From contig JALTLO010000193.1 of assembly GCA_027001995.1 (NCBI GenBank), positions 1-64,000 on the forward strand: DNA of 64,000 nt, given 5' to 3'. The notes below the pieces were generated by a model. That model worked only from the letters and a program-made list of their open reading frames with translations, ran no database searches and was not told where the DNA came from. The position numbers were made by a program, and so were the translations under genes. The DNA is from Planctomycetota bacterium. GTDB lineage: Bacteria; Planctomycetota; GCA-002687715; DRQF01. Positions 3,993 through 21,000 of this stretch are shown one piece after another; position 1 is the first letter of the stretch, and each line of letters opens with the position of its first letter.

Positions 3993-4116
3993 AATCATAT
4001 ATGATTGAAAATTGCGACATTATGGGGAAAATCAATCAAATATGAGCTCATTTACTGAGAAAAGTCCTTGCCGAGCTTGTTCCGGCACCCAGCAAAGTCG
4101 ATACTATCATATGTGA
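3993..4116. promoter_or_regulatory. Three TCATATATGA-like palindromic operator candidates upstream of hipBA
   Basis: Perfect palindrome AATCATATATGATT at 3993-4006, with variants TCAAATATGA at 4036-4045 and TCATATGTGA at 4107-4116, in AT-rich DNA. Confidence 0.6.
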
Positions 4117-4160
4117 TCGCATTTGGTCATATTTCATCTCATTCAATCATGGGTGATAGC

Positions 4161-4496
4161 ATGAAGATCGACAAACTCAGTCCAATTCCCTTCGCCTTAG
4201 AGGAAATGGGCAAACGCCTCAGCCGGATTCGCAAGCAGCAAGGACATTCTCAAGAAGTCTTGGCGCAAGAGGCTGGCATTGGCGTTGCCACTCTCCGTCG
4301 AATGGAAGACGGACACGATGCTCAAATGAGCTCCTGGATCAAAATACTGGGGGCCTTAGACATGTCCTCCGCCGTCAACGCTTTCCTGCCAGAAACCTTC
4401 ATTTCGCCCATGGCTGAAGTCAAAGGAAAAGGAAAGAGAAAACAACAAACCCGCCCACGGTCCACAGGCAACACTTGGGGAGATGAAACCCCATGA
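4161..4496 (+). CDS. hipB: XRE-family HTH regulator, HipB-like antitoxin
   Basis: RIRKQQGHSQEVLAQEAGIGVATLRRMEDG helix-turn-helix, with an ATGA overlap onto hipA. Confidence 0.8.
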   Translation: MKIDKLSPIPFALEEMGKRLSRIRKQQGHSQEVLAQEAGIGVATLRRMEDGHDAQMSSWIKILGALDMSSAVNAFLPETFISPMAEVKGKGKRKQQTRPRSTGNTWGDETP

Positions 4497-5788
4497 CCAC
4501 GGCCACTGTCAATCTCTGGGGCACAACTATCGGTTACATTTCCATGGGGCCCCAGGAAAGATTCGCTCGCTTCGAATACGATCCAGCATTCGCCAGCCGC
4601 GGCATTCAGCTTGCGCCACTCAAAATGCCCGTGCAAAGTCATCGTGTCTTTCAATTTCCCGATCTACATCCTCGTGCCTTCCACGGTCTCCCGGGCCTCA
4701 TCGCCGACAGCCTTCCGGACCGCTACGGCAACCGCCTCATCGATGTGTGGTTAGCTCAAACTGGACGCAAGCCAGAAGAGTTCAATGCCGTCGATCGCTT
4801 ATGCTACACCGGCACAAGAGGCATGGGAGCTCTCGAATTTGAACCCGCCACAGAAGCTCCCCTCAATGACGATCGAAAATTAGAAGTAAAAGAACTCGTC
4901 GAACTCGCTTCCATGGCATTCGCGGACAAAGAAACTCTCGACACCAAACTGACAAGCGCCCAAGGTGCCCAAGCACTCCTCGACATCCTGAGTGTCGGCA
5001 CTTCCGCTGGAGGTGCCAGGGCCAAAGCCGTCATCGCCTTTGACCCGAAGACACGCCAAGTCCGTTCTGGCCAAATTGATCAGGGAGGAAACTACGAACA
5101 TTGGCTCATCAAGTTCGATGGTGTGGCCTTTAGCGGCGACTGGGGAGTGGCTGACCCAGCGGGGTATGGACTCTTAGAATACTCCTATTACTTGACCGCT
5201 CGAGATTGCGGAATCAACATCATGCCAAGCCAGATCTTCAGCGAAAATGGCCGCAATCATTTCATGACCCAGCGTTTCGATCGAGAGACCGGCGGCAAGA
5301 AGAAGTTTGTCCAGACATTCGCTGCTCTTGCCCATTTCGATTTCTGGGAAAGTGGACTCCACTCATACGAACAACTCTTCTTAACTATGAAACAACTCAG
5401 CTTGCCCCAATCAGACTTAGAAGAGCAATTTCGCCGAGTCCTTTTCAACATCGTCGGTTGCAATCAAGATGACCACGTCAAGAACTTCGCCTTCATGATG
5501 GATCGCCAAGGGGCTTGGCACTTGGCCCCGGCTTACGATCTATGCCACGCAGAAGGCAGTCACTTCACCAAGAACCACCAACTGAGCATCAACGGCAAGA
5601 CCAACGATTTCGTCCGGGCTGATATCAAACACTTAGCCGACTACATTGGGCTACCCCGTGGTCGCGACAAACTCATCTTGGATCAAGTCACCCTGTCGTT
5701 TTCGACATGGCATGAAAAAGCAAAACAGCTCAACATTCCTAAGGACATTCAAACTCACGTCACCAGAACTCTCAGGCTGAAACTATAG
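4493..5788 (+). CDS. hipA: HipA-family Ser/Thr kinase toxin
   Basis: HipA N-terminal motif LPGLIADSLPDRYG, Gly loop TSAGGARAK, WLIKFD, and catalytic region NQDDHVKNF...LAPAYD. Confidence 0.93.
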   Translation: MTTATVNLWGTTIGYISMGPQERFARFEYDPAFASRGIQLAPLKMPVQSHRVFQFPDLHPRAFHGLPGLIADSLPDRYGNRLIDVWLAQTGRKPEEFNAVDRLCYTGTRGMGALEFEPATEAPLNDDRKLEVKELVELASMAFADKETLDTKLTSAQGAQALLDILSVGTSAGGARAKAVIAFDPKTRQVRSGQIDQGGNYEHWLIKFDGVAFSGDWGVADPAGYGLLEYSYYLTARDCGINIMPSQIFSENGRNHFMTQRFDRETGGKKKFVQTFAALAHFDFWESGLHSYEQLFLTMKQLSLPQSDLEEQFRRVLFNIVGCNQDDHVKNFAFMMDRQGAWHLAPAYDLCHAEGSHFTKNHQLSINGKTNDFVRADIKHLADYIGLPRGRDKLILDQVTLSFSTWHEKAKQLNIPKDIQTHVTRTLRLKL

Positions 5789-5998: not shown

Positions 5999-6766
5999 AT
6001 GTTGGAAACACCTTCCTCACGTCGCTACTTACTTTTCGTTCTCGTAGCCTGCTTCATTGGGCAAACGGCCATGGTCTATTTTGATGATAGTGGCCGTCAA
6101 AAACCGCCACTTTCAGATAGAGCTCAGATTGGTTGGCAGGTGTGGCACAAAAACAACTGTCAAAGTTGTCACCAAATATTTGGTTACGGCGGTTTTCTTG
6201 GGCCAGACTTAACCAACGCCATCGATCAGCTCACACCAGAACGATTACAGTCGATTCTGACTGTTGGCGCCAAACCTATGCCAGCATTCCATCTGTCCGA
6301 AAATGAAATTGACGGGGTCGCGGCACTCTTAGGTGAACTCAATGGACTCGGTGTTGGGCAACTGAGACTGAAGACGACTCCCCCAGCACCAGCATTGCTG
6401 GATCAGTTCATCGAAGACCTCAGTCAACAAGTACCCCTTTCCCCTTCTGCTCAGCTCGGCCGCAAGGTTTTCAAAGAAAAGAAATGTATCACCTGTCATT
6501 TACCGAATCTTCAGAACACAGCCCAAGGCCCTGATCTATGTCAAGCTTTGGAACGTCTCGGCAATGACGGCATCACGGCAACGATCAGAAACGGTCGCTT
6601 GGCCGCTGGCATGCCAGCCTTCGATCTCACCTCAACTGAAGAGCAAGGAATTTGTGCCTTCTTCGGTTGGCTCAAGGCGAACTCCAAAGGTCTTGCCGCA
6701 AACTTTAAGTCGGCCCAAGAAAGCGGAGATACAAGTCGTCTCCCTTGGTTTGAGTATTCCAAATGA
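5999..6766 (+). CDS. Membrane-anchored diheme c-type cytochrome, NorC-like N-terminal domain
   Basis: N-terminal TM helix; VWHKNNCQSCHQIFGYGGFLGPDLTN (NorC-like); second CITCH; each heme domain is followed by an MPAF axial-Met motif. Confidence 0.85.
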   Translation: MLETPSSRRYLLFVLVACFIGQTAMVYFDDSGRQKPPLSDRAQIGWQVWHKNNCQSCHQIFGYGGFLGPDLTNAIDQLTPERLQSILTVGAKPMPAFHLSENEIDGVAALLGELNGLGVGQLRLKTTPPAPALLDQFIEDLSQQVPLSPSAQLGRKVFKEKKCITCHLPNLQNTAQGPDLCQALERLGNDGITATIRNGRLAAGMPAFDLTSTEEQGICAFFGWLKANSKGLAANFKSAQESGDTSRLPWFEYSK

Positions 6767-8196
6767 ACAATGAACTAGCTGCCGGCCAAAGAATGATATT
6801 CGTTCTCATGCGCTGCGCCCTGGCATGCCTCATGATCGCCATTTTCGGTGGAGCCATTTCAGTGGTCTTCTACTTCAAGGATACGGCGAGCTTCCTCAAT
6901 AGCATGGGCATTGAATTCCAAAACTTAAGACCAGTCCACACCACTTTTGCCTCCTGCTGGATCTTCCTGGGGGGCATAACTTGTGTCTTCCACTATCTCT
7001 ACCACGCACATGGTGAAATGAGTCTCGGGGAAAGACAGCGTTTTCGCCTTCAGATGACCCTTTGGGGGCTTGCAGGCGCCGGAATCTTACTGACCTTGCC
7101 TTTCGGGATTTCTTCGGGCCGGGAGTACTTGGGCTTTCATCCGGTATTCTCCATGCTCATTGTGCTGGGGTGGTTGGCCTTCGCCCGCACCTATTTCGGG
7201 CGGGTCCGACGGGGGTTTTGGTCCCAACCGGTCTACGTTTACATGTGGGCCACGGGAATCGTTTTCTTTCTCTACACCTTCATCGAAGGCCATGCATATC
7301 TGATTCCCTCGATACGCAACAACCCCATCGCTGACCTGCAAATCCAATGGAAACACTGTGGCACTGTAGTGGCTTCCTTCAACATGTTGGTTTACGGTTC
7401 ATTGATGTATGTAGGAGAGCAGTTGAGTGGCGACAAGACATATGCCCGTTCACGAAAGGGTTTTGCCTTCATGGGCGTCGGACTGCTCAATAGTTTTACT
7501 AACTATGCCCACCACACTTATCACCTGCCCCAAGCTGACTTAATCAAATGGATCGCGTTCATCGTGAGCATGCTTGAAATTGTGATTCTCGCCAGCATCT
7601 TTTTGGACTTGAAACGATCCATAAAAGCCAAAACACCAACGGATCGATTCTTCGCCCCAACAGGATTCATGAGCATTGCGCGTTACTGGTCTTTCGGCCT
7701 GCTCGTAGTGGCCTTGCTCATTTCTGTGCCGCCCCTCAACTCTTTCATACACGGCACTCATGTGGTCATGGCTCACGCCATGGGAAGCGAAATCGGGATC
7801 GACTCCTTCATCATCTTCGCCGTCTTCACCTACATCCTGAGCTCCGTGTTCGAACGGTGTTGGGCCACCCAGAAGATTCTCGAGTCGCCTGAGTTTCGCA
7901 GCTTGGTCCGCGGGGCTCACTGGACTCTCGTGGCGCTATTTTCTTGGCTTGTGGTGAGTGGTTTGGCGGTGGCGGGTACCAGAGCTTTCGGCAAACCCGC
8001 ACCGGATTTGATCGCCCGAATGGGGCCAACGATGCTGGTGACCATCGCCGTCATACACGCCTACTACTTAACCCGCATCTTCTTGACCCTTTGGCCCCTT
8101 ACCAAAGCGCCTGGGCTCCGTCGTGAGCAGGAGTTGGATATTCTCCCGAAAGCCCACTACGAAGGCATCGCTTCTAAGAGCGACTCTCAAGCTTAG
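6763..8196 (+). CDS. Heme-copper oxidase superfamily subunit I, cNOR (NorB)-related, with variant active site
   Basis: Polytopic membrane protein with RPVH(59), GREY, AHH(250-251), SMLE and HGTHVVMAHAM(330-340); ATGA overlap with the cytochrome gene. Confidence 0.85.
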   Translation: MNNELAAGQRMIFVLMRCALACLMIAIFGGAISVVFYFKDTASFLNSMGIEFQNLRPVHTTFASCWIFLGGITCVFHYLYHAHGEMSLGERQRFRLQMTLWGLAGAGILLTLPFGISSGREYLGFHPVFSMLIVLGWLAFARTYFGRVRRGFWSQPVYVYMWATGIVFFLYTFIEGHAYLIPSIRNNPIADLQIQWKHCGTVVASFNMLVYGSLMYVGEQLSGDKTYARSRKGFAFMGVGLLNSFTNYAHHTYHLPQADLIKWIAFIVSMLEIVILASIFLDLKRSIKAKTPTDRFFAPTGFMSIARYWSFGLLVVALLISVPPLNSFIHGTHVVMAHAMGSEIGIDSFIIFAVFTYILSSVFERCWATQKILESPEFRSLVRGAHWTLVALFSWLVVSGLAVAGTRAFGKPAPDLIARMGPTMLVTIAVIHAYYLTRIFLTLWPLTKAPGLRREQELDILPKAHYEGIASKSDSQA

Positions 8197-8305: not shown

Positions 8306-11300
8306 TTAGGCCACTTCTGTTTCATCTTCTGCGAACCAACGATAAACCGTTGGCAACACAAGAAGAGTAAGGACCAATGAGCTAATCAGCCCACCAATGA
8401 CCACAGTGGCCAGAGGGCGCTGGACTTCAGCACCAGCACTGACAGCAAGAGCCATGGGCACAAAGCCGATGATGTCAGTCAAGGCTGTCATGAGCACAGG
8501 GCGCAAGCGCGTATGAGATGCTTCTCGGGAGGCATCCACAATACTCTTGCCAGCTTCTCGCTGTCGAACAATGTACGACACCAAAACCACCCCATTCATC
8601 ACAGCGATACCAAAGAGAGCAATAAAACCGACTCCTGCGGAAATCGAGAATGGATAGCCTCGAATCAAGAGGGCAGCGATGCCACCGGTCAATGCCAAAG
8701 GCACGTTGAGGAAGATCAAGAGCCCAAGTTTCAAAGAACCAAAAGTGGAATAGAGCAAGACGAAAATCAAGAGCAAGGCCAAGGGTACCAGCAAGGTCAG
8801 TCGCTTGGCTGCTTCTTCAAGATTCTCAAACTGTCCACCCCACTTCATCGTCCATCCAGGGGGGAGGTTAGCCTCTGCGTCAACACGCTTCTGAGCTTCA
8901 GCCACGGCGGAAGCAAGGTCTCGACCACGAACATTAGCCTCAACGGTAATTCGGCGATTGATGTTCTCACGGCTAATTTGCGCCGGCCCTGTTTCCAGGG
9001 TGATCTTCGCCAATTGAGCCAATGGGATACCAGAACCTCCACTTGATGCCGTCACCTTGAGGTCGCCAATGCGTTCCAAGTCGGCTCGCACGGAAGGATC
9101 GAAACGGGCTTGAAGCACGAAACGTTTTTGCCCCTCAATGACGGTCCCCAAAGGTCTGCCAGCAACAGTCTCAACGACATCCAGAACATCGCGCACGTTA
9201 ATTCCCAACCGCGCAATCGCCTTGCGGTCCAAGACGATACGCATCGTTGGAAGACCAACTGTCTGCTCAACTTTCACTTCTTCCATGCCTGGGACGGTTC
9301 GAACGATAGCCGCGACTTTGTCAGCCTCTTTCTTCATGTCATCGAGAGAACCAGAGCTGGCGAAGATCTTGAGAGCAACATCAGAACGAACACCACTGAT
9401 TAACTCTGCAACCCGAAGCTCGATCGGTTGAGAATAACTCAACATCACCCCAGGAACGGCATCCTTGAGTTTCGTATCAATAGCTTTGATGAGCTCTTCC
9501 TTGGTATCAAACCTCCAAGTATCCGGGTGGTTCAGAATCACATAGGTGTCACTGATTTCCACGCCCATGGGGTCGGTAGCAATTTCAGCTCGTCCTGTCC
9601 GTGAAACAACTGTCTTGACCTCAGGGAAGGACTTCACCACAGCTTCAGCCATGAGGCTAACTTCATTCGATTTCTCGAGCGAAACACTGGGGACACGCCA
9701 AATCTGCATGGCGATCGCCCCTTCATCTAAGTGAGGAATGAACTCAGCACCCAAGAAAGGTGTCACTGCCAAACTTGCCACAAAAAGACCAAAAGCAGCG
9801 AGTGCCGTGGTCTTTGGACGGCGAAGCACACCATTCAACATAGGGCTGTAGATGCGTTTGGCGACTCTAAAGAGAACTGGCTCTTTTTCGATGGGTTTCT
9901 TGAGAAAGAAAGTAGCCAGAACGGGCATCAGCGTCAGGGCACATAGGAGTGACCCCGCCATGGCAAAGACCACAGTAAGTGCCATCGGACCGAACATTTT
10001 CCCTTCAACCCCTCGCAGGGCCAAAATTGGAAGATAAACGATCATGATGATGCCAACTGCGAAAACACATGGCCTTCCTACTTCTTGGCAGGCGAGACGC
10101 ACTTTCTCGAGATGAGAAACTCCGGTTTCATCCTTGTGCTTTCGCAAGTATCGCACGATGTTCTCGACGATGACAACCGCCCCATCGACAATAATACCAA
10201 AGTCAACGGCGCCCAAGGACATGAGGTTGCCGGAGATACCAGCAAGTTTCATACAGATCAAAGCAAAGAGCATGGAGAAAGGAATCGCAGAGGCCACCAA
10301 GAGACCGCCGCGCAAACTACCGAGCAAGAGCAGCAGCACAACAATGACCAGAACACCTCCTTCGACGAGGTTCGTGGCCACAGTCTTGATGGTGCGGTCG
10401 ACGAGTTCGGTACGATTATAAAACGTATCGATTGTGACGCCTTCAGGAAGTGTCTTCTGCAATTCTTGAATCTTGTCATGGACATCAATGGAAACGGTTC
10501 GCGAGTTAGCCCCCATGAGCATCATGACAATGCCAATGACTGCCTCGCGATCACCATCACGGGTCACTGCACCTTGGCGAATCATCGGGGAAAATTCGGC
10601 CTTGCCTAAGTTGCTGACGTAAATCGCCGTGCCTTTGTCATCGTGCCCGACAACGACATTGGCCAAGTCTTCTAATGATCCCACCAGCCCTTCCCCGCGG
10701 ATGAGGTATTGCTCACCGGCATGGGCAATGTAGCCGCCGCCAACGTTTTGATTGTTCGTTTCAATCGCGGTAAAAACTTCACTCAATGAGAGGCCGTAGG
10801 CTGCCAAGCGGTCCGGATCAATGGTCACTTGATATGTCTTGAGCTCACCTCCAAAGGAGTTGACTTCGACAACCCCAGGCACAGAGCGCAACTGATAGTT
10901 AACATCCCAATCCAAAATTTGACGCAGTTGCATAGGCGTGTAGCCTTCACCACGCACCTCGAAACTATAAATCTCCCCTAAACCAGTAGAAATAGGCCCC
11001 ATCTCTGGGCTACCGTACGCTTCAGGAATGGCCCCCCTGGCTTCAATCAGTCTTTCGCCCACCAATTGGCGGGCCCAATAAATGTCCGTTCCTTCTTCAA
11101 AAACAACGGTCACAACGGAGAGACCAAACTTAGAAACAGAGCGCAGTTCTTCGATTCGCGGAAGACCACTCATGGCGGTCTCTACAGGAAAGGTGACGAA
11201 ACGTTCCATTTCCTGAGGTGCGAGGCCTGGGCTGTTGGTAAGAACTTGAACTTGGACATTCGTGACGTCTGGCACAGCGTCGATGGGAAGCTCTTGATAT

Positions 11301-11389
11301 GAGCGCACCCCGATCACCGCAAGCAGAAGCCACAAAACAATAACCAAGAAACGGTTATTGATTGAGAAGTTGATAATACTGTTAATCAT
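8306..11389 (-). CDS. czcA: CzcA/CusA-family heavy-metal efflux RND transporter
   Basis: LPIDAVPDVTNVQVQV, GNLMSLGAVDFGIIVDGAVVIVEN and RLRPVLMT motifs; 1027 aa. Confidence 0.92.
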   Translation of the reverse strand: MINSIINFSINNRFLVIVLWLLLAVIGVRSYQELPIDAVPDVTNVQVQVLTNSPGLAPQEMERFVTFPVETAMSGLPRIEELRSVSKFGLSVVTVVFEEGTDIYWARQLVGERLIEARGAIPEAYGSPEMGPISTGLGEIYSFEVRGEGYTPMQLRQILDWDVNYQLRSVPGVVEVNSFGGELKTYQVTIDPDRLAAYGLSLSEVFTAIETNNQNVGGGYIAHAGEQYLIRGEGLVGSLEDLANVVVGHDDKGTAIYVSNLGKAEFSPMIRQGAVTRDGDREAVIGIVMMLMGANSRTVSIDVHDKIQELQKTLPEGVTIDTFYNRTELVDRTIKTVATNLVEGGVLVIVVLLLLLGSLRGGLLVASAIPFSMLFALICMKLAGISGNLMSLGAVDFGIIVDGAVVIVENIVRYLRKHKDETGVSHLEKVRLACQEVGRPCVFAVGIIMIVYLPILALRGVEGKMFGPMALTVVFAMAGSLLCALTLMPVLATFFLKKPIEKEPVLFRVAKRIYSPMLNGVLRRPKTTALAAFGLFVASLAVTPFLGAEFIPHLDEGAIAMQIWRVPSVSLEKSNEVSLMAEAVVKSFPEVKTVVSRTGRAEIATDPMGVEISDTYVILNHPDTWRFDTKEELIKAIDTKLKDAVPGVMLSYSQPIELRVAELISGVRSDVALKIFASSGSLDDMKKEADKVAAIVRTVPGMEEVKVEQTVGLPTMRIVLDRKAIARLGINVRDVLDVVETVAGRPLGTVIEGQKRFVLQARFDPSVRADLERIGDLKVTASSGGSGIPLAQLAKITLETGPAQISRENINRRITVEANVRGRDLASAVAEAQKRVDAEANLPPGWTMKWGGQFENLEEAAKRLTLLVPLALLLIFVLLYSTFGSLKLGLLIFLNVPLALTGGIAALLIRGYPFSISAGVGFIALFGIAVMNGVVLVSYIVRQREAGKSIVDASREASHTRLRPVLMTALTDIIGFVPMALAVSAGAEVQRPLATVVIGGLISSLVLTLLVLPTVYRWFAEDETEVA

Positions 11390-11400
11390 GATGTGCCTTT

Positions 11401-12822
11401 CTAGTGACTGTGGCCTCCGCCGAGTTCACTTCGGCGGGCCATGGATTTCAGAAAGAATGTTCCCGTAACAGCGATTCTGTCGCCGGGATCAACACCACTC
11501 AGAATTTCAACCAATCCTCTTGCCCCTTTTTTCAAGACGACTTCTTTTCTTTCGAAGGTATGCTCGTCTTCTTGCACGAAGATAAAGTTCTCTTCTCCTT
11601 CATGCACAACAGCGGCTTCTGGCACGACAACGCGCCCCATCCGCGTATTGGTGACAAGTTCGACGGACCCAAACATACCTGGGCGAATCGGAAATTTCTC
11701 TGCCCAGCTATCAATGGGTTTGTTTTCAAGCTCGACACGGATGTCCACCGTCCGTGTTTGCTCTGAAACTGTGTAACCAACAAGAGTGACCGTACCGGGA
11801 AGACCGACATTGGGAATAGCGTCTAAGTTGACGATTGCCTTCTGTCCCGTACGCGCCGCTGTCAGATCTTTCTCGTAGATCGATGCCAATACCCACAAGC
11901 GAGAGAGATCATAAATCTCGAAAAGCACCATGTTGTTGTCGACGTATTCGTCCATGGTGATATCGCGTTTGACCACGATTCCATCTCGAGGTGCGCGAAT
12001 AACGAAACGACCGTAATGCTTGTTGGCTCCTGTTGAGAAGTCTTGAATCTCTTCGTCGCTCAGCTCAAGGACACGCAATCGATCCCGATCAGCGACTTCC
12101 TCAATACGAGCTTGGCGCAAAGCAACTTCAAGTTCCAAGATGCGGGTATCACGTTCCGACTTGAAAGCAGCCAATTGCCGTTCCTTATTCAAACGAGCCA
12201 TCTGGACAGCCTTCTCCGCATCGAGAAAGGGTCGCAGAGTCGAAATTCGCTTTTCTTGAAGCGCTTTTTCGCGCTCATAGATCTTCGTGGTAACAGCAAT
12301 CGCGCCGTTGAGTAGCTTATTGAGAGCTTCGGAACGGTGATCAAACAGCTCTTTCGCTTTCTGAAGGGTTTCTTCCGCGGCCTTTGTGGTGGCACGGCTT
12401 TTTAAGAATTCCCCCACCGTATTGCCGAGGGCAACACTGTCGAGCTCAACCAAGATTTCTCCGGTCTTGACGTGTTCACCTAGCCCTTTGTGTATCTTGC
12501 GAACAATGCCCCCAACCCGAGGATTGACATGAGAGAGGGTGTCTTCGTTGCGAGAAACCCGGGCAACAAGTCGCAGGACTTCTTCAATTTCACCAGCTTT
12601 GGCGATCACTGAAGTCACTTTGGCCGCTTTCAGTTGGTCATCATCTAGAACGATATCTTGGTGTTCACCCTCTTCACCATGTTCGTCATGGCCCCCATGA
12701 CCACCGTGTCCTTCTTCACCGCCTTTTTCTCCCTTGCCAGGGCCGCAAGCTGTCAGCGGGAAAAGCAAGGCACAAAGAAAGGTGAATAGAAGGGCCATTG
12801 AAATATGCTTGTGAATTCTCAT
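11401..12822 (-). CDS. czcB: RND membrane fusion protein, CzcB-like, with His-rich N-terminus
   Basis: Lipobox LTAC, GHGGHGGHDEH stretch, lipoyl-like halves, long coiled coil, RPGMFG and C-terminal GGHSH. Confidence 0.85.
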   Translation of the reverse strand: MRIHKHISMALLFTFLCALLFPLTACGPGKGEKGGEEGHGGHGGHDEHGEEGEHQDIVLDDDQLKAAKVTSVIAKAGEIEEVLRLVARVSRNEDTLSHVNPRVGGIVRKIHKGLGEHVKTGEILVELDSVALGNTVGEFLKSRATTKAAEETLQKAKELFDHRSEALNKLLNGAIAVTTKIYEREKALQEKRISTLRPFLDAEKAVQMARLNKERQLAAFKSERDTRILELEVALRQARIEEVADRDRLRVLELSDEEIQDFSTGANKHYGRFVIRAPRDGIVVKRDITMDEYVDNNMVLFEIYDLSRLWVLASIYEKDLTAARTGQKAIVNLDAIPNVGLPGTVTLVGYTVSEQTRTVDIRVELENKPIDSWAEKFPIRPGMFGSVELVTNTRMGRVVVPEAAVVHEGEENFIFVQEDEHTFERKEVVLKKGARGLVEILSGVDPGDRIAVTGTFFLKSMARRSELGGGHSH

Positions 12823-12824
12823 TG

Positions 12825-14225
12825 CTATTTTTCCTCCTCTTTGGAGCTCGGTTCTTGTTCGACGACGCTTCCGGCGACGGTCTCAACTAAGAGCTCTGCT
12901 TGCGCCATGCGAATTTGTGCGTCTAAGTATTTTCTGCGGGCGTCTAAGACTTGCCGCTGGGATGTCAGAATCTCAAAGAAGGTGACTTCTCTTTCTCGAA
13001 ACGCTTCATCGTTGAGCCTGAGGCTCTCAATGAGGCGCGGCATCAATTGCATCTCATAGGAGGTCACGTTGCGCTTCGCGTTCTCTAAGGTCGTGATCGC
13101 CTTATTCACTTCAGCTCGAAGCATATGAACCGCGGCTCTCACGTCTTGAGCAACCCTGGCTCTTTGGGCCATAGCAGTCTTGATGGCATAGGCATTGAAG
13201 TTCGAGAAAATAGGAAGAACAATATCAATAGCCGTTCCAACAGAAACCAGAGGCCATTGCTGAGCAATCTCCAAACGCAATGCCTCTTCAGATCTCTGAT
13301 AGAGGGCCAGAAGCGCCTGAAGATCAGGGCGTTGGGTCATGGCTTTCTCAGTCAGCATCTTTCGGTCGATAGCTGGAATGGTTCTCCTCTTGAACGGATC
13401 CTTCGTGGTTTTCAAGTTAAGTCCCGCTGTAGGGCGCAACCCAAGAAGTGCGTTGAGGGCTTGCCGCGCGAGAGCAAGCTCACCAACAAGTTTGATGCGA
13501 TCCTGCTCGAGAGAGGCCGCATCAATCTGTGCCAAGTTCGCCTGAATCGCTGTGGCGGCCCCATTGTCTCGAGCTTCCACAATGAATTGTGACGTGCGCT
13601 CAACAATATTTCTCAGACTCTTATTCTGCGCAAGACGAGCTTGAGCTCCTAAAACCTCCAAGAATTGTCTGCGAACAGCCCGAGAAAGCTGCCATTCTCC
13701 GGCGAGAATTTTCTGGCGGACTTCTTCGATCCTTGCTTCTGCACCGCCCTCCCGAGCGCTGATCTCCCCTGGTCTGGGGAGTGTCACGGAGATTCCTGAG
13801 CTTGCAATGATGTCCGCCGTCGTCGGAGCTATGCCATCCGCTACCTCGGCGGCCAAATAGTTGGCAAAATCGAACCCAAACCCAATGGTCGGGTCTGGAA
13901 GAAGCCCTGCCTCAACTAATTGAGCTTCGGCTATCCCAGCTTCAGCGCGAAGGGCCGCAAGAGTCGGGTTATGAGTGACGGCCCATGCTGCGGCCTCTTC
14001 TGCAGTGATGGCAGCATTCTTGGCTATCATGGCTGCCCCGTTTTCGGGCTGCCCTCCAGTTTCTGACCCTGGGGATGCTGCCGAGTTTAATTCAGCAAGT
14101 ATGGTCATAGGATCAAGGGGCTGTGCTTCATAGGAAACACAACCGCCCAGTAGTGTGACTCCAATGAGGAGCCATCTTAGTCGTGGACGCAGGCGCGGTT
14201 GGCGCATATCAAAGGACCCAATCAC
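12825..14225 (-). CDS. czcC: TolC-family outer membrane efflux protein, CzcC-like
   Basis: Lipobox LGGC, OEP-type repeats (NPTLAALRA...AGLLPDP; RPDLQA) and position in the operon. Confidence 0.85.
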   Translation of the reverse strand: MIGSFDMRQPRLRPRLRWLLIGVTLLGGCVSYEAQPLDPMTILAELNSAASPGSETGGQPENGAAMIAKNAAITAEEAAAWAVTHNPTLAALRAEAGIAEAQLVEAGLLPDPTIGFGFDFANYLAAEVADGIAPTTADIIASSGISVTLPRPGEISAREGGAEARIEEVRQKILAGEWQLSRAVRRQFLEVLGAQARLAQNKSLRNIVERTSQFIVEARDNGAATAIQANLAQIDAASLEQDRIKLVGELALARQALNALLGLRPTAGLNLKTTKDPFKRRTIPAIDRKMLTEKAMTQRPDLQALLALYQRSEEALRLEIAQQWPLVSVGTAIDIVLPIFSNFNAYAIKTAMAQRARVAQDVRAAVHMLRAEVNKAITTLENAKRNVTSYEMQLMPRLIESLRLNDEAFREREVTFFEILTSQRQVLDARRKYLDAQIRMAQAELLVETVAGSVVEQEPSSKEEEK

Positions 14226-14340
14226 GGGCTATCCTCCTCGTCGTTGAACGTTATGAATATCGGATTATGAACCTCTAAGACTGGGAACAGTCTGGTGTTC
14301 AGCTTTGCTGTGGGGATTCGCCAGAAACGGCGGACTATGA

Positions 14341-14784
14341 TTAGATCTGAAGCGAAGTGGTGAGGTTCTTTACCGAGACCGGTGCTGTAAGACTCATGGG
14401 CCTGTACGTCGCCCTAAGGACTCGGGGAGCTTCAAATCGCGGGATGCTTAGAAGTGGTTGGGCTGATGCCACGTTTTGATCGAATTCAAAATTCTTGGCA
14501 GTTAAGGCATCCCGGGTCGCTCGCAGTCGGGGACCAGACAGGACCAAGTCGGTGCAGTCACCACAGGATTTTGGTTGGCCAAGAATGAAAACTTGGTGAG
14601 CCGATGAAACCTGAGCTGCGAGATGAGATTCGGGATTGGAAGAGGCGCAACACGAGCCACGAGCACGCTCTACAGCGATCGAGCCATCGGCCTTGATGCA
14701 TAAAACCGAGCCTTTGCTCAGCATCATGACGTTGCTGAGCAGGAGTAATCCAAGGCATAGGAAATGTGTCATCTTCTTAATCAT
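14341..14784 (-). CDS. Small Cys-rich exported/membrane protein heading the czc-like operon
   Basis: N-terminal hydrophobic segment, VLCIKADG, CC and CGDC motifs. Confidence 0.65.
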   Translation of the reverse strand: MIKKMTHFLCLGLLLLSNVMMLSKGSVLCIKADGSIAVERARGSCCASSNPESHLAAQVSSAHQVFILGQPKSCGDCTDLVLSGPRLRATRDALTAKNFEFDQNVASAQPLLSIPRFEAPRVLRATYRPMSLTAPVSVKNLTTSLQI

Positions 14785-15053
14785 GGTCCGGTGGATAATT
14801 ACCTATTTTCCCAGGGTTTTCAAGCTAACCCTTTTCCCCATCGGCATTTTCCCCAACTCCTCCGCGCCATTCTCCTGAGAAATCTGACAGAAGATCAGGG
14901 CTTGTTGCATGTGCTTTCTCTATCAACGAGTTAGGAAAAGGAGCACTCCCCAAATACAGAGAATTCGTGGGAAATCTATGGAAGCGCCAACTCATGACTC
15001 CTGCTTTCTGTTGGGATATGTGATGGTGCTTCAAAGTCATGACAAGAAAGGAC

Positions 15054-15812
15054 TCACCTTTCGTCCATTTCCAGATGATCCGAGACTTTTCCAGAAGCAT
15101 GCGCGATGTGCAGCCCAACCAACCGTGCTACCAGAATCGTCAAATAGAGTTGGCCAACAATCGCCTCCGCACCAACAAGGAGTCTGGCAAACATAGTTGT
15201 TGGCACCACATCGCCTAGACCTAAGGTCGTCAAAGTCGCAAAGCTGAAATACAAATACTCAGCAAAAATTGGCGCCTCTTGCACTCCAACGCCCTCAGTA
15301 AAGACGATAAGTGGGCGGTCAGCCAGAGCGTGAACCGTCATAAAAGCGAAAGCAAAAAGAAGCCCGATCAGCACGTAGACACACCCGGCACCAAGAATTC
15401 TGTCGACGGTAACATCCCCTCCCTTCATCACATCCAACAAGAGGAGACCCGTGGTGAGTGAAATGACACAGAGGTTCAGGAGGCTCATGATCATGTTGAT
15501 CCAACCGTGACCATGGTCACTTGTTCGAAAACAAATAAGAGCTGTGATACTGGCGACAACAGCCGCAATGGCAAGCCCACTCACTACCCGCAAGTAGCGC
15601 GGTTGGGCAACGAGAGCCCGGACACCCCCGACAAAGACACCCCAGAACACGAGATTCCAAGCGATGAGGCCCTGGAGGCCATACCCCAAGATGGGATAGA
15701 TCAAACCCAGAGCACAGAGGGCCAAGAACAAGACAAGATAATGTCCTCCAACGTGAAGACCGGAGCGGGACTTGGCGCTGCTACGGACTTTGAATGTTTC
15801 GCCAGACTTCAT
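15054..15812 (-). CDS. Potassium channel family (Ion_trans_2) membrane protein
   Basis: Several TM helices then YLYFSFATLTTLGLGDVVP pore motif and EAIVGQLYLTILVARLVG; GGAGG RBS before ATG 15812. Confidence 0.85.
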   Translation of the reverse strand: MKSGETFKVRSSAKSRSGLHVGGHYLVLFLALCALGLIYPILGYGLQGLIAWNLVFWGVFVGGVRALVAQPRYLRVVSGLAIAAVVASITALICFRTSDHGHGWINMIMSLLNLCVISLTTGLLLLDVMKGGDVTVDRILGAGCVYVLIGLLFAFAFMTVHALADRPLIVFTEGVGVQEAPIFAEYLYFSFATLTTLGLGDVVPTTMFARLLVGAEAIVGQLYLTILVARLVGLHIAHASGKVSDHLEMDER

Positions 15813-16049
15813 GAACCTTACCTCCCAACGACTTCGACAAGCCTCCTCCTGTTCCTCATGACACTGAAAAAAGGGGCAATCGCTGTTCAAAACTAATACT
15901 TCATGGGATATGTAAACAGAAAAATCGGCTGGTGAGGTTGCTTTCATCCTCCCCAGCCGATTTTCAAATGGAACTCAACATCGGTCATACCCAATGGCGA
16001 TTGGATTAAAGTTGGGTTCCTTAGCTTTTGTCGATTAAAACGAAGCGAA

Positions 16050-16433
16050 CTACTTCGCCAACTTTTTCATCTTGTCGGCGTCACTCAGCGCCTTCCATTT
16101 TGGCAAACAATCTTCGCAACAGAAGCCAATCTTCTTGCCCATATGCATTGTTGTATAGGCGGTGCTAACAGGATCTCCCATAATGGGGCATTTCGTGTTC
16201 ACAATGCCAGCCTTGGTAAGAGCGGCAAGATCCGTAGAACCTTTTTCAGCCCCGTGATCATGTGCGTCACCATCGGAATGATCGTGACCGTCAGCATGAT
16301 CATGTCCATCTTCCGCACTGTGAGAATGCCCATCATCATGACCACCTTCATTGTGATCGTCTTTGTCGCCACAAGAAGCAAGCGCGAATAGAGCAACAAG
16401 CAAGACTGCCGTTGTTAAGAAAATTCGATTCAT
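16050..16433 (-). CDS. His-rich lipoprotein with YHS/TRASH-like domain
   Basis: Lipobox LASC, H/D-rich stretch, NTKCPIMG...KIGFCCEDC. Confidence 0.75.
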   Translation of the reverse strand: MNRIFLTTAVLLVALFALASCGDKDDHNEGGHDDGHSHSAEDGHDHADGHDHSDGDAHDHGAEKGSTDLAALTKAGIVNTKCPIMGDPVSTAYTTMHMGKKIGFCCEDCLPKWKALSDADKMKKLAK

Positions 16434-16452
16434 TTCAATCTCTCTCTTCATT

Positions 16453-17220
16453 TCAGGAAAAATAGTTCAGGCCATAAATGAGGGTTCCACCGAGATGCCC
16501 GGTGAGTCCCACTGACAAGGCGCTCAAGAAAAGTGTCGAACGATAAAATCTAACTAAGATCTTGTCGCCTCCAGAGCGCTGCCATTCAGCGAAGGCCACA
16601 CTCAACACCCCAAGGACGCTGGTCATAACACCCGCAAAACGATGTCGTTCAAAGACAATCAACAAGTCGCCACCTTGGTCATTTTGGTAAGCCACCGCAA
16701 AGCCCAAGGCCACTGCAATCACACTAGAGATTGCACCAACAATTACAAGTGGGCGAACGGCAACGCCGTAAGACTCTGTTTTCTTGAAGATTGCCCAAAC
16801 TTCCAGGAGCGCCGCGAGGATCAAGAAGGCGATAGGAAAATGAATGATCACCGGGTGAAACCGCCCAATGGACTTGATAATTCCCTCTGAATCTTTGTGA
16901 TTCCCATGATCGTGCTCTTCCTTCTCGCCGTCCTCCTGGCCATTGTGGTGCCCAGACTTTTCTGCTTCAGCTGGAGCAGCCTTTGGTAGGGCAGCTAGGT
17001 ATTTCTGGGGATTGGCCAAGAACTTCGATTTACATCTCTTGCAGCATACTCCAATGTTACGACCAAGATACTCGAAGACGACAGCATCATCCCCCAGCAC
17101 TTCATCAGGAGTCACAGGGCAATTTTCGTTGATCGGATTTTGGCCGAAAACCGATCCGGACATCAAGACAAGTAGGGCCCACAAGGCGAAGCAGCTCACC
17201 TTATGTCCCCGACTTGACAT
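16453..17220 (-). CDS. YHS-like domain, His-rich linker and DUF2231-like membrane domain
   Basis: NENCPVT...GVCCKRC...PQKY; GRFHPVIIHFPIA and TGHLGGTLIYG are typical of DUF2231. Confidence 0.78.
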   Translation of the reverse strand: MSSRGHKVSCFALWALLVLMSGSVFGQNPINENCPVTPDEVLGDDAVVFEYLGRNIGVCCKRCKSKFLANPQKYLAALPKAAPAEAEKSGHHNGQEDGEKEEHDHGNHKDSEGIIKSIGRFHPVIIHFPIAFLILAALLEVWAIFKKTESYGVAVRPLVIVGAISSVIAVALGFAVAYQNDQGGDLLIVFERHRFAGVMTSVLGVLSVAFAEWQRSGGDKILVRFYRSTLFLSALSVGLTGHLGGTLIYGLNYFS

Positions 17221-17233
17221 GACCTCGAACGGC

Positions 17234-17869
17234 CTAGTGATCATGACCACCATGGTCATGTCCCTTTTCCTTGCCCTTTTTGGTTTCTTTGGACTTCTTG
17301 TAGGCGGCCAGGTATTTCTTTGGGTTCTTGGCGAAATCGCCAGCACATCCATCGCAACAAATATTGATAATCTGATTGTTGTAGACAATGAAATTATCTG
17401 CTTGGATCTTTTCGTCGGCCATCACGATGCAATGAGTGTTGCCCAGATCAGTCAATTTTTTCTTGGATGTCAGACGAGCCAGGTGTTTATTTGGCTCCTT
17501 ACGGAACTTCTTGTCGCATCCACCACAACAGAAATGAACAACGTGTCCCTGGAAGGTCGTCGTGACGTTCTTCTTTGACTTCCCTTTCATGATTGGACAC
17601 TTGGGGTTCTTAATGTCGATATTCTTTGATGCGGGATACGCCTTGGCGTAGAAATCCTTGGGAGCGGCCTTCACCTTCTTCACGCAAGCCTTGCAGCAAA
17701 CGAAAATCTTTTCGCCGTTGTATTTGACGGCCAAGTTTTTCTTAACTGGTTTACCGCTAATGGGACACTTCTTGTTGCCAAAGAAAGGTGTTTCAACCTT
17801 CTGAGCCATACCACTCGAGCAAAAAAGAATGGCTGCACTTGCGACCAAAATCATGTTCAACATTTTCAT
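17234..17869 (-). CDS. Secreted protein with three tandem YHS/TRASH-like repeats and a His tail
   Basis: Three N..C[P/I]..-CC..C units and C-terminal GHDHGGHDH; AAGGA RBS before ATG 17869. Confidence 0.78.
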   Translation of the reverse strand: MKMLNMILVASAAILFCSSGMAQKVETPFFGNKKCPISGKPVKKNLAVKYNGEKIFVCCKACVKKVKAAPKDFYAKAYPASKNIDIKNPKCPIMKGKSKKNVTTTFQGHVVHFCCGGCDKKFRKEPNKHLARLTSKKKLTDLGNTHCIVMADEKIQADNFIVYNNQIINICCDGCAGDFAKNPKKYLAAYKKSKETKKGKEKGHDHGGHDH

Positions 17870-18008
17870 AATAGATCCTTTCCAAACAATTGATCTCACG
17901 ACTTCTTGAAGTGAGACTTCGTCGACATTCCGCCGACACAAGATCCACGCTGCCCACATGACAGCGTAGCATTCTTCAAACAGGACGAGCTTCAAAGAAG
18001 CAACATCG

Positions 18009-21000
18009 TTATTCTCCCGAACTCACAGCGGGATGATCTTGCCTTTTCTTCTTGTCTTTTCTCTTCTGAATCCGAATCTGCTTTCGAAGAGTCATCTCTT
18101 GAATCAAGCAGTAGAGAACCGGGACAACGAACATGGTCATCAACTCAATCGTCATACCGCCAACAGATGGAATAGCCATAGGAACCATGATGTCCGACCC
18201 TCGCCCCGTGGAGGTTAAGACAGGCAACAAAGCTAAGATCGTCGTGGCCGTTGTCATCAAACAAGGGCGAGCGCGGCGACCGCCCGCTTGAACAATCGCT
18301 TCGCGAACAGCCTCGATGGTCTCTGGCTTACGTTCGTCAAAGCTCTGCTTCAAGTAGGTTCCCATAACGACACCATCATCCGTCGCGATTCCAAAGAGGG
18401 CCAAGAAACCAACCCAAACTGCGACACTCAGATTGATGGGGCCCACTTGGAACAAAGTCCGCATGTTAGCGCCAAAGACCTCGAAATCCAGGAACCAAGG
18501 CTCTGCATAAAGCCACAGCATAATGAAACCGCCAGACCAAGCAACAAAGACTCCAGTAAAGATAAGCAAAGTCAAAGACACTTGGCGGAATTGCAAATAT
18601 AGCAGCAAGAAGATGGCGAAAAGCGCTAATGGCAAGACCACCATCATCTTCTTTTCTGATCGCACCTGATTCTCATAGGCACCTGCGAATGCAAAGCTTA
18701 CACCGGCAGGAACAATCAAGTCGCCACTGGCAATCTTGTCATTCAAGAAGGCCTGGCACTCCTCAACGACGTCCACCTCCGCATAACCCTTCTTCATGTC
18801 GAACAAGACATAACCGAGCAAAAAGGTGTCCTCACTCTTAATGACCTGAGGACCAGGCGTGTAGTGGATCTTCGTTAATTGTCCCAAGGGGATTTGCGCC
18901 CCAGAGCCAGTTGGCACTAAAATTTCTTTCAAACTCTCCCACTGGTCTCGGAGCTCTCGAGAATAGCGAACGCGAACAGGATAACGCTCTCGCCCTTCAA
19001 CCGTTGTTGTGATTCGGCGACCACCGACGGCAACTTCGATCACATCTTGAACCGTTCGTATGTGCACACCGTAGCGAGCAATTGCATCCCGATCGATTTC
19101 TATTTCAATGTAGGGTTTGCCCACAATACGATCAGCGAAAACGGCACTCGCTTCCACCGAAGGAATCTCCTTGAGAAGCTTCTCAATTTCAAGACCGACC
19201 TTCTCGATGGTCGCCAAGTCTGGGCCCTTCACTTTAATCCCCATGGGGGCCCGCATACCACTTTGAAGCATGACGATTCGAGCTTCAATTGGTCTGAGCT
19301 TAGGAGCCGAAGGTGTAGCTCCTGGCACTTTCGCCGCCTCTATAATGGCATTCCATATATCATCCGTTGACTTAATCTCTGGGCGCCATTGACGAAATAT
19401 CTTGCCGTTCTCATCCGGAACAAGCTCGCCATTGTCATCACGCAAGTATTCCTTCTTCTCTTCGTCGTAGGCAAAACGTAAGACTTGGCCGTCTTCATCA
19501 ATAGCGTACTCAGACTTGTAGCTGATGATGGTCTCGATCATGCCGATAGGAGCTGGATCCAAGGGACTCTCCACCCGACCAATCTTGCCAACGACTTCTT
19601 CGATTTCAGGAATAGCACGAATGGCCATGTCTTGCAGGCGCAAGATGTCATGAGCTTCGCCGATAGAAGCATGAGCCATCGTCGTCGGCATATACAGGAA
19701 GGAGCCTTCATCCAACTTGGGCATGAACTCCTTCCCAAACCCAGTGAATTTATGTTTGGCAGTAATCCAGAATTCTGTTTTTCGGACATCGTCTGCTGAT
19801 GCGATACCCGTCATCTCCACCACTTTCGGCACAAAACCAAAGGTCGCTTCGAATCCGCGCCATGTCACAAGCCCGAAAGCCACGAGAGCCGTGGGCATGG
19901 TCAAGAACAAGAGTTTATGGCGCAGGCACCAGCGCAGGATGGGCTCGTATACGAGCAAGAACAAACGGATCGAAAGTAAAATGCCCCCGATGATCCCGAC
20001 CACAAAGACGAGGTTCTCCATGTCCTTCTCTGGACCAAAAGGAGCCCAGTGTTCGGCGAGATAGATAGCAACCAAAGTGGCCACAGCGATACTTGAGAAC
20101 TTCAGAACAACAGAGACCAACTTGCTCGGCAAGAATGGTTCGGCCAGGCGCCACAATCCGATCACCAAAAGAATGGCCCCGGCCCACCACCAGGAAGCAA
20201 AGGCCAAGAATAGCCCAGAAACAATCAAAATGCCGCTCATGATCATGCGACCAACCCGACTCGGCTTCCCCTTGGCAATCAAGATATGGGCCAGAGGGGG
20301 AATAATCGTCAACGCCAAGACAACAGACGCAAAAAGAGCGAAAGTTTTGGTGTAGGCCAAAGGCTTGAAGAGCTTACCTTCCGCCGCCTCCATGGTGAAA
20401 ACTGGCAGGAAGCTAACGATCGTCGTGAGAACACTTGTCAGAACTGCGGAGCCCACTTCAGAAGACGCTCGAAAGACAACCTCCAATCGACTCTCGTCTG
20501 GCGGTGCTTCATCGAGATGCTTTAGTATGTTCTCGCAGATTACGATTCCCATGTCGACCATGGTTCCGATGGCAATAGCAATACCAGACAAGGCGACCAC
20601 ATTGGCATCAACCTTAAATTGACGCATGAGGATAAAGCAGGCGAGTACTGCAAGAGGAACAACACCCGAGATGAGCAAAGAGCTACGCAGATGCATCATC
20701 ATGACGAGCACAACAATGATCGTCACGAGAATTTCTTCCAACAGAGCTGTATTGAGAGTACCGAGGGTTTCATAGATCAGCCCAGACCGATCATAGAAAG
20801 GTACGATCGTGATCTGAGAGACCGTCCCATCGGGTAGCGTCTTCTTCGGTAAACCCGGTGAAATTTCCTTGATCTTTGCTTTAAGCTTCTTGATGGCCGC
20901 GAGAGGATTATCACCGTAGCGAACAACGACCACGCCTCCCACTGCTTCGGCACCCCCTTTATCGAGCACCCCACGACGTAGGGCTGGCCCCAACGTGACG

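Follow-up and report, generated by a model that had tools for sequence, protein, structure and literature searches.

The DNA examined here (the window) is a stretch of 64,000 nucleotides from a Planctomycetota bacterium, positions 1 to 64,000 of contig JALTLO010000193.1 (assembly GCA_027001995.1). Near its beginning lie two genes, one for a membrane-anchored cytochrome c (subunit II) and one for a heme-copper superfamily protein (subunit I), which a preliminary description had taken for a translationally coupled pair of a diheme cytochrome and a NorB-like subunit. This view was borne out: both open reading frames (ORFs) are present, the stop of the cytochrome gene and the start of the subunit I gene overlap in a 4-nt ATGA at 6763-6766, two CxxCH motifs occur in the cytochrome, whose matches are to cytochrome c families, and subunit I matches the COX1 domain family, with no NCBIfam model reaching its cut-off for this subunit. 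An assembly artefact was rejected, as one contig of the best-matching public run, a hydrothermal vent metagenome (possibly the source), spans the pair with 0 differences and pieces from a second study also match it. Gene decay was likewise rejected on the basis of residue conservation among homologues and intact frames in close relatives. The pair is a genuine, conserved two-subunit enzyme of an already named family; its features are collected in Table 1.

Table 1. Features of the gene pair in the window. Counts refer to the 347 Lys-type and 18 His-type (sister subtype) family sequences kept at 90% identity.
Feature	Position	Strand	Basis or remark
Subunit II, diheme cytochrome c, membrane-anchored, 255 aa	5999..6766	+	ORF, CxxCH motifs, domain matches
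Heme c motif 1, C54-x-x-C57-H58	6158..6172	+	Distal ligand candidate Met94
Heme c motif 2, C163-x-x-C166-H167	6485..6499	+	Distal ligand candidate Met205
Subunit I, heme-copper superfamily, N2O red family, Lys-type, 477 aa	6763..8196	+	
His59, first low-spin heme b ligand	6937..6939	+	346/347; = cNOR H53 / cbb3 H78
Arg120-Glu121	7120..7125	+	= cNOR Channel 1 Arg134/Glu135
Asp191	7333-7335	+	= cNOR Channel 1 Asp198
Rebuilt helix VI segment W196-N207	7348..7383	+	Lys197 new, Gly200 for FeB/CuB His, FeB Glu deleted, Asn207 for second Glu
His250-His251, two remaining non-heme metal ligands, helix VII	7510..7515	+	346 and 347 of 347
Glu272 = P. aeruginosa cNOR Glu280 (SxLE motif)	7576..7578	+	347/347 Lys-type, 0/18 sister subtype
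His338-Ala-Met340	7774..7782	+	346 (His) and 345 (Met) of 347; 18/18 in sister subtype

We consider it close to certain that subunit I is a member of the N2O red family, a cNOR-related group that, according to Murali et al. (2024), "might serve" as a nitrous oxide (N2O) reductase unaffected by sulfide and acetylene (PMC11214002); their 2021 preprint holds the same proposal. As the family is already described, with 293 GTDB entries (Table 1 of PMC11214002), subunit I does not define a new clade. Our species-level genome scan found at least 579 related stretches, and members are often annotated as norB or cbb3 subunit I. Subunit I shares with the published family its phyla, its place in the tree and the lack of an active-site Tyr (PMC11214002). 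The closest named relatives of the pair are Planctomycetota.

In a tree of 79 rows, built by a quick search with SH-aLRT support and no bootstrap, 42 rows of the N2O red family formed one clade (support 98) containing both subunit I (P0001) and the reference KAF0182170.1 (P0257; N2Ored in Dataset S4 of PMC11214002). This reference is of the sister subtype and 29% identical to subunit I over 304 columns, from which subunit I differs in its Lys197/Gly200/Glu272 site and diheme partner; the other 10 N2Ored references were not among the 30 proteins looked up. The family lies between the C-family and cNOR, without the active-site Tyr. It is sister to cNOR, qNOR and NOD (a putative nitric oxide (NO) dismutase) with a weaker support of 93, and the 9 cNORs form a clade of their own (99) that joins qNOR and NOD (100) apart from it; eNOR rows branch far away. 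Genome counts were compared as well. Dataset S6 gives SZUA-318 one A, one C, one eNOR and one N2Ored (PMC11214002), and the four subunit I genes of that genome are an A-type, a cbb3, an eNOR and a Lys-type relative, the last grouping with P0001 (support 96). There was one mismatch: J028 carries a relative (L028/L107) yet has N2Ored 0 in the same dataset. A statement in the preliminary description, that a cNOR-related clade had been proposed as an alternative N2O reductase, is thus confirmed for this protein by the reference, the genome counts and the tree; of the broader phylogeny it proposed, the separate clade was recovered in a tree without nNOR, gNOR, sNOR or bNOR rows.

To map the active site, we aligned 484 relatives, dropped 3 that lacked core residues, and kept 365 at 90% identity, 347 of the Lys-type of subunit I and 18 of a His-type. 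Residues were placed by profile-profile alignment (hhalign) to 9 cNORs and 4 cbb3 subunits. H59, the GRE Glu (R120/E121), H250/H251, E272 and H338, all listed as kept in the preliminary description, map to the named cNOR residues, and so does H330. His338 corresponds to the proximal ligand of the active-site heme, and Met340 replaces the second low-spin heme His, to which it aligns in both cNOR and cbb3, again as described before. The helix VI register had been off by one. The FeB His had been equated with Cys199, with His198 adjacent; in both profiles the metal His (cNOR H186 of L208, cbb3 H225 of L097) falls on Gly200, in a register anchored by D191, W196 and V203 with which a hidden Markov model alignment to solved cbb3 chains concurs. 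The FeB-ligand Glu of cNOR has no counterpart, lying opposite a gap of one residue, and its second Glu aligns with Asn207, in agreement with the earlier claim that both catalytic Glu are lost.

Conservation points the same way. Position 199 is Tyr in 158, Cys in 123 and Thr in 37 of the Lys-type sequences, and position 198 is His in 5; as both are so poorly conserved, neither Cys199 nor His198 is an essential ligand of the family, and both were rejected as such. On an ideal helix, at most 60 degrees separate residues 197, 204 and 207 from 200, whereas 198 and 199 are 160 and 100 degrees away from it. Conservation of the HAM and WKHC motifs had been named as a check for decay: Met340 and Lys197 stood this check, His198 and Cys199 did not. 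Judged from the alignment, the near-invariant novelties are Lys197 (346 of 347), Asn207, Glu272 and Glu175 (347 each), together with a Gly200 found in all 347. In the Lys-type, conservation reaches at least 97% in a polar cluster of K197, N207, Y211, N243, N247, S269 and E272. No Tyr stands at the position of the A/B-family Tyr (204, Gly/Ala) or at that of cbb3 (243 Asn, 244 Leu/Ser), and positions aligned to what we take to be the cbb3 proton channel residues are apolar in the N2O red family. By these alignments, the periplasmic proton-entry residues of cNOR are kept, and there is neither a cbb3 proton channel nor a cross-linkable Tyr. In cNOR, Channel 1 on the periplasmic side includes Arg134, Glu135 and Asp198 (PMC3431322).

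Throughout the family, the helix VI His is lost and the low-spin heme is predicted to have His/Met ligands. In the His-type, residue 197 is His in 16 of 18 sequences, and residue 200 is Asp, residue 272 Ala or Gly, and residue 340 Met in all 18. The swap of K197/G200/E272 for H197/D200/A272 suggests that the site calls for two His, a carboxylate and, at 197, a nitrogen group, and this compensating pattern suggests that a metal site is kept. Members of the sister subtype (P0216, P0218, P0225, P0229-P0231, P0233, P0244, P0257 and others), which lack Glu272, Asn243 and Asn247, come by name from Proteobacteria, Acidobacteriota and Opitutales. They may have a different chemistry though filed in the same family.

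A single-sequence search of the PDB gave no match for subunit I; a profile search did, including solved cbb3 chains. An AlphaFold2 model from a 142-sequence alignment (mean pLDDT 94) lies as near to cbb3 (8smr_E, VIA Z 39.2; 3mk7_A, Z 38.7) as to cNOR (4xyd_A, VIA Z 39.8, root-mean-square deviation 2.5 over 422 aligned residues; 3o0r_B, Z 37.8). The family profile of the cytochrome partner has NorC (3o0r_C) as its best PDB match (E 2.9e-12), with a NorC-like N-terminal domain followed by a CcoP-like second c-heme domain. Among the closest relatives, 80 of 81 loci have a cytochrome gene alongside subunit I, and in 74 of the 80 it is diheme. Motif 1 is invariant in the partner alignment and in all 73 Bacteroidota-type partners; motif 2 is missing from these 73, which are monoheme. 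NorC Tyr73 is Phe66 in the subclade of our partner and mostly Tyr in the Bacteroidota type.

How does the pair relate to known enzymes? With cNOR (P. aeruginosa 3O0R, Roseobacter denitrificans 4XYD) it shares the order cytochrome c then subunit I, the NorC-like first domain, the fold, and H59, H250/H251, H338, R120/E121/D191 and E272. It differs in that the FeB His is Gly200, the FeB Glu is deleted, the second Glu is Asn207, the low-spin His is Met340 and NorC Tyr73 is Phe66, in the extra c heme, in the absence of norQ/norD among the scanned neighbours, and in an identity of 17-18%. The pair works like a NorCB complex, yet it is not a cNOR by its defining ligands: it has a NorC-type partner, and it lacks the three-His/one-Glu FeB and the bis-His heme b and does not group within the cNORs. 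With cbb3 CcoN (3MK7, 8SMR) it shares the fold, a D-x3-Q-W before and a V-G after the position of the helix VI His, and a c-type partner, but it has no CuB His in helix VI, no cross-linking Tyr and no aligned channel residues, and it does have Glu272 and the His/Met heme. The three-His CuB and cross-linked His-Tyr of A, B and C oxygen (O2) reductases are absent. The earlier view, which set the protein apart from standard cNORs and from O2 reductases, holds by ligands, Tyr and clade as regards a canonical cNOR and an O2 reductase that has the His-Tyr cofactor.

Among putative NO reductases, a His/Met low-spin heme also occurs in nNOR, and an active-site His is Asp in gNOR (PMC11214002), the latter resembling the sister subtype at 200. 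These enzymes descend from the B-family and have a cupredoxin-fold subunit II, whereas subunit I belongs to the C/cNOR branch, so the likeness is convergent; the cytochrome c partner sets the pair apart from eNOR, sNOR and bNOR in the same way. In NOD, a helix VII His is Asn and the SxLE Glu is Gln, and no external electrons are thought to be taken up (PMC3413370). NOD is also a NOR-branch enzyme with an altered non-heme metal site, and it is a neighbour or co-resident in several carriers. In subunit I, the Glu and the two His of helix VII are retained; a cytochrome dedicated to electron input takes the place of the qNOR-type single chain, and the protein falls in a separate clade.

Next, we examined the gene content of carriers. 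The source genome (92% complete) has five subunit I genes (A-family, divergent C-type, canonical qNOR, NOD-like and N2O red), NarGHI over the cut-offs, RIC, and a NapA-like enzyme, below its cut-off, that adjoins an octaheme cytochrome; NosZ, NirK and NirS were not found in it. A multicopper gene near the NOD-like gene was rejected as NirK, its score being far below the cut-off. NosZ was searched with TIGR04246 and by tblastn with two NosZ proteins; PF18764 matched no control genome and is uninformative alone. The co-occurrence of nirK, nirS and nosZ, a check already proposed, was followed in 50 carrier genomes from the best 80 of at least 579 loci, mostly Planctomycetota and Gemmatimonadota, for which completeness is not given; the counts are descriptive, since kin are not independent. 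They hold full-length NosZ in 12, NirK above the cut-off in 10 (2 more near full length), NirS in 2, qNOR in 7, cNOR in 5 and a NOD-like gene in 4, and 25 have none of these six; eNOR was not searched across all 50. Four Nir-positive carriers without cNOR, qNOR or NOD were examined in full. Two of them have eNOR; in the other two (G084, G085), which have NirK, the heme-copper set consists of two A-family oxidases and the N2O red member, a set shared by a fifth carrier with a sub-cut-off NirK-like gene. No NosZ and no flavodiiron-type domain was found in G084 and G085, metagenome-assembled genomes that may miss genes. A class-wide set of 18 genomes included 3 carriers only. The best 80 of 555 metagenome loci of the Bacteroidota type (taxon inferred from named close matches; 46 of at least 10 kb) have near the pair Rrf2 in 52, RIC in 11, a NOD-like gene in 11 (motifs seen in 9, cut off in 2), NirK in 7 and NosZ in 2. 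For the closest genome loci, 80 in number, the scan took in 85 of the 153 nearest neighbours, with crude ORF calling in GC-rich loci, and nothing but the cytochrome recurred; NorQ and NorD were absent from these 85.

Electrons would pass from cytochrome c through heme c and the His/Met heme b to the active-site heme, and protons would be supplied from the periplasm, so that no charge would be separated. A second metal, Fe most likely, would be held by His250, His251 and the carboxylate of Glu272, and Lys197 may reach into the space vacated by the His-to-Gly change at 200, as a ligand or as a proton donor. The substrate is inferred rather than shown, with NO and N2O as the contenders named. We tentatively favour, with less than even confidence, NO as the physiological substrate of an enzyme that scavenges it to N2O at low oxygen. 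This is consistent with the cNOR architecture and fold, the grouping with cNOR, qNOR and NOD, and the genes near Bacteroidota-type pairs, where Rrf2, RIC, NOD-like and NirK genes occur and NosZ rarely does. In G084 and G085, which have NirK, neither NosZ nor a flavodiiron-type domain was found, nor any heme-copper enzyme beyond the two A-family oxidases and the N2O red member, and several active-site designs, including those of gNOR and nNOR, support NO reduction (PMC11214002). NosZ is also encoded by the organism cited for the N2O label and by 7 of 8 matched Flavobacterium carriers, and the compensating changes of the sister subtype speak for a retained metal site. Other observations weigh against NO. 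Subunit I has lost the FeB His and both Glu of helix VI, and Glu211 of cNOR was reported as critical (PMC3431322). Because the source genome has a qNOR and a NOD-like enzyme, a third NO sink would be redundant. In Cloacibacterium CB-01, which carries a 'cNor', NO reductase activity is only minor (PMC11168931); Dataset S6 lists for C. normanense no cNOR or qNOR and one N2Ored (PMC11214002), and from this profile the 'cNor' gene of CB-01 may be of the N2O red family. The closest genome loci show no recurrent nitrogen-cycle neighbour, half of the carriers have none of the six enzymes searched, and G084 and G085 possibly miss genes.

The name of the family implies instead a non-NosZ N2O reductase (N2O + 2e- + 2H+ -> N2 + H2O), which we regard as possible but rather unlikely. 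A His/Met heme would suit a high-potential acceptor, the His-to-Gly change would open room for linear N2O, and Lys197 would protonate the departing oxygen. A Lys has this role at the CuZ site of NosZ. We know of no heme/non-heme-iron enzyme that reduces N2O. We take Solitalea canadensis to be the current name of Flexibacter canadensis. N2O reduction was proposed for the family in PMC11214002, where the only support cited is two papers on F. canadensis; S. canadensis has one N2Ored in Dataset S6 but nosZ and nosD in Dataset S8. The main text states no active-site residues for the family. No biochemical study or assay of the family was found in a literature search that did not cover subscription papers, and the N2O-reductase label is on weaker ground than the name implies.

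The genomic evidence for an N2O-reducing activity, as far as gene content can tell, is split. The source genome has NarGHI, a NapA-like enzyme and qNOR, with no NosZ found; NosZ was not found in three related carriers either, and full-length NosZ was not seen in 38 of the 50 carriers but is present in 12. Within Chryseobacterium (30 of the 40 rows of Dataset S8), all 6 carriers have napAB, nirK and qNOR without nosZ, compared with napAB and nirK in 3 of 24 non-carriers. By contrast, 7 of 8 matched Flavobacterium carriers have nosZ (Datasets S6 and S8), and for 6 of the 8 the cNOR count of S8 exceeds that of S6 by one, which would fit N2O red being counted there as cNOR. NosZ lies within only 2 of 160 loci. 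The 'cnorB' of Cloacibacterium normanense is suppressed at high oxygen in a genome without nitrate or nitrite reductase (PMC11879220); this organism is a listed reference for N2Ored, and its 'cnorB' may be of the family. It is doubtful, to the same degree, that the family is a copper-free N2O reductase on an NO-reductase scaffold in which Lys stands for a metal-binding His, the two subtypes being two solutions for the same site; a literature search for a Lys-for-His heme-copper site found no paper.

Reduction of O2 or peroxide by a scavenger without a His-Tyr cofactor is improbable. The c hemes, heme b and active-site heme could give four electrons, and the role would be to protect O2-sensitive neighbours or to remove O2 from the NOD-like enzyme; the fold is equally near cbb3, and NOD-like genes occur at 11 of 80 Bacteroidota-type loci, in 4 of 50 carriers and in the source genome. 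Yet no Tyr stands at 204 or 243/244, the loss of which is taken as excluding O2 reduction (PMC11214002), the CuB His is lost, the cbb3 channel positions are apolar, and the source genome already has A- and C-type oxidases. Just as improbable is another nitrogen species (nitrite, hydroxylamine or an S-nitroso compound), with Lys197, Asn207 and Glu272 as acid-base groups and possibly no second metal. The conserved polar cluster would suit it, as would the gap at nitrite in the source genome, where nitrate reductases and two enzymes that handle NO are present and neither NirK nor NirS was found; this gap might be filled, however, by the octaheme HAO-like cytochrome next to the NapA-like gene, and nirK is already present in the Chryseobacterium and most Flavobacterium carriers available in Dataset S8 (PMC11214002). 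Very unlikely is a non-catalytic descendant acting as a gas-binding buffer, sensor or electron conduit. The lost His is one that nearly all heme-copper families keep, no NorQ/NorD was seen among the 85 neighbours scanned, and CB-01 has minor NO activity (PMC11168931). Catalysis, however, is a better fit for the strict conservation, over 347 sequences, of the two His, Lys197, the carboxylate and the residues for proton entry, and for the compensating changes in the sister subtype; no signalling domain is attached.

What is new here is the corrected active-site map (Gly200, Lys197 and two subtypes) and the NosZ of the strain behind the N2O label. If NO is the substrate, the His and Glu of helix VI are dispensable for a working heme-copper site. 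If N2O is, the family would be a hidden greenhouse-gas sink, unseen by nosZ surveys and mis-counted as N2O-producing norB, and aerobic marine Planctomycetota, Gemmatimonadota and nosZ-less Bacteroidota would consume N2O. As members are labelled norB or cbb3, inventories of N2O sources and sinks count the family as a producer without evidence. The NO versus N2O question is testable in cultured nosZ-less Chryseobacterium carriers such as Chryseobacterium daecheongense, C. hispalense and C. limigenitum; the gene described here, which comes from an uncultured organism, adds a member to the family but is less suited to such a test.

The pair is flanked by a HipA/helix-turn-helix (HTH) pair on one side and an oppositely oriented heavy-metal-efflux-like cluster on the other. 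Directly upstream, an HTH antitoxin-like gene and a HipA-like kinase gene at 4068-5788 are not conserved near relatives, and 4 of 41 related genomes carry the family; both suggest a patchy or mobile setting. No family member was found among the best 15 of 232 plasmid rows. Upstream of the pair, no FNR/DNR-like box was found at up to 2 mismatches and no sigma-70 site on the plus strand, and no RNA dataset among the listed public runs matched the pair. The minus strand at 8306-21869 has two sets of RND-type efflux genes along with small proteins of His-rich and YHS-like kinds. To judge by a reading of the translations, from which the efflux label also comes, this looks like a metal-resistance island.

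The NOD-like qNOR paralogue (G000:C197:77971-80355; L089:637-3021), with helix VII His to Asn and Glu to Gln, has a divergent Rrf2 gene upstream, and its type stands head-to-head with the pair in several Bacteroidota-type loci (for example L126, L134, L187). Most Bacteroidota-type loci (L118-L187) have, after the pair, a QueD-like gene (47 loci) and an Rrf2 gene. Elsewhere, G000:C49:43553-45055 (L087) encodes a divergent cbb3-like subunit I whose helix VI motif is unusual and whose branch in the tree is long, in an operon with c-type cytochromes. At L214:4111-11727 (G000:C19), the companions of the NapA-like molybdoenzyme are DsrO/DsrP-like subunits, a tetraheme and an octaheme HAO/HDH-like cytochrome; together they may form a module that takes nitrate to nitrite and beyond. 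A molybdopterin oxidoreductase frame at G000:C197:63067-64335 has one in-frame TGA and is possibly a selenocysteine formate dehydrogenase. Four family members of about 790-825 aa (P0143, P0152, P0177, P0179) are probably fused to another domain. A Bacteroidota C-family variant with a YYMHQGVG helix VI motif and a diheme CcoO-like partner lies near the pair and globin/CRP-like genes in L133, L134, L139 and L187.

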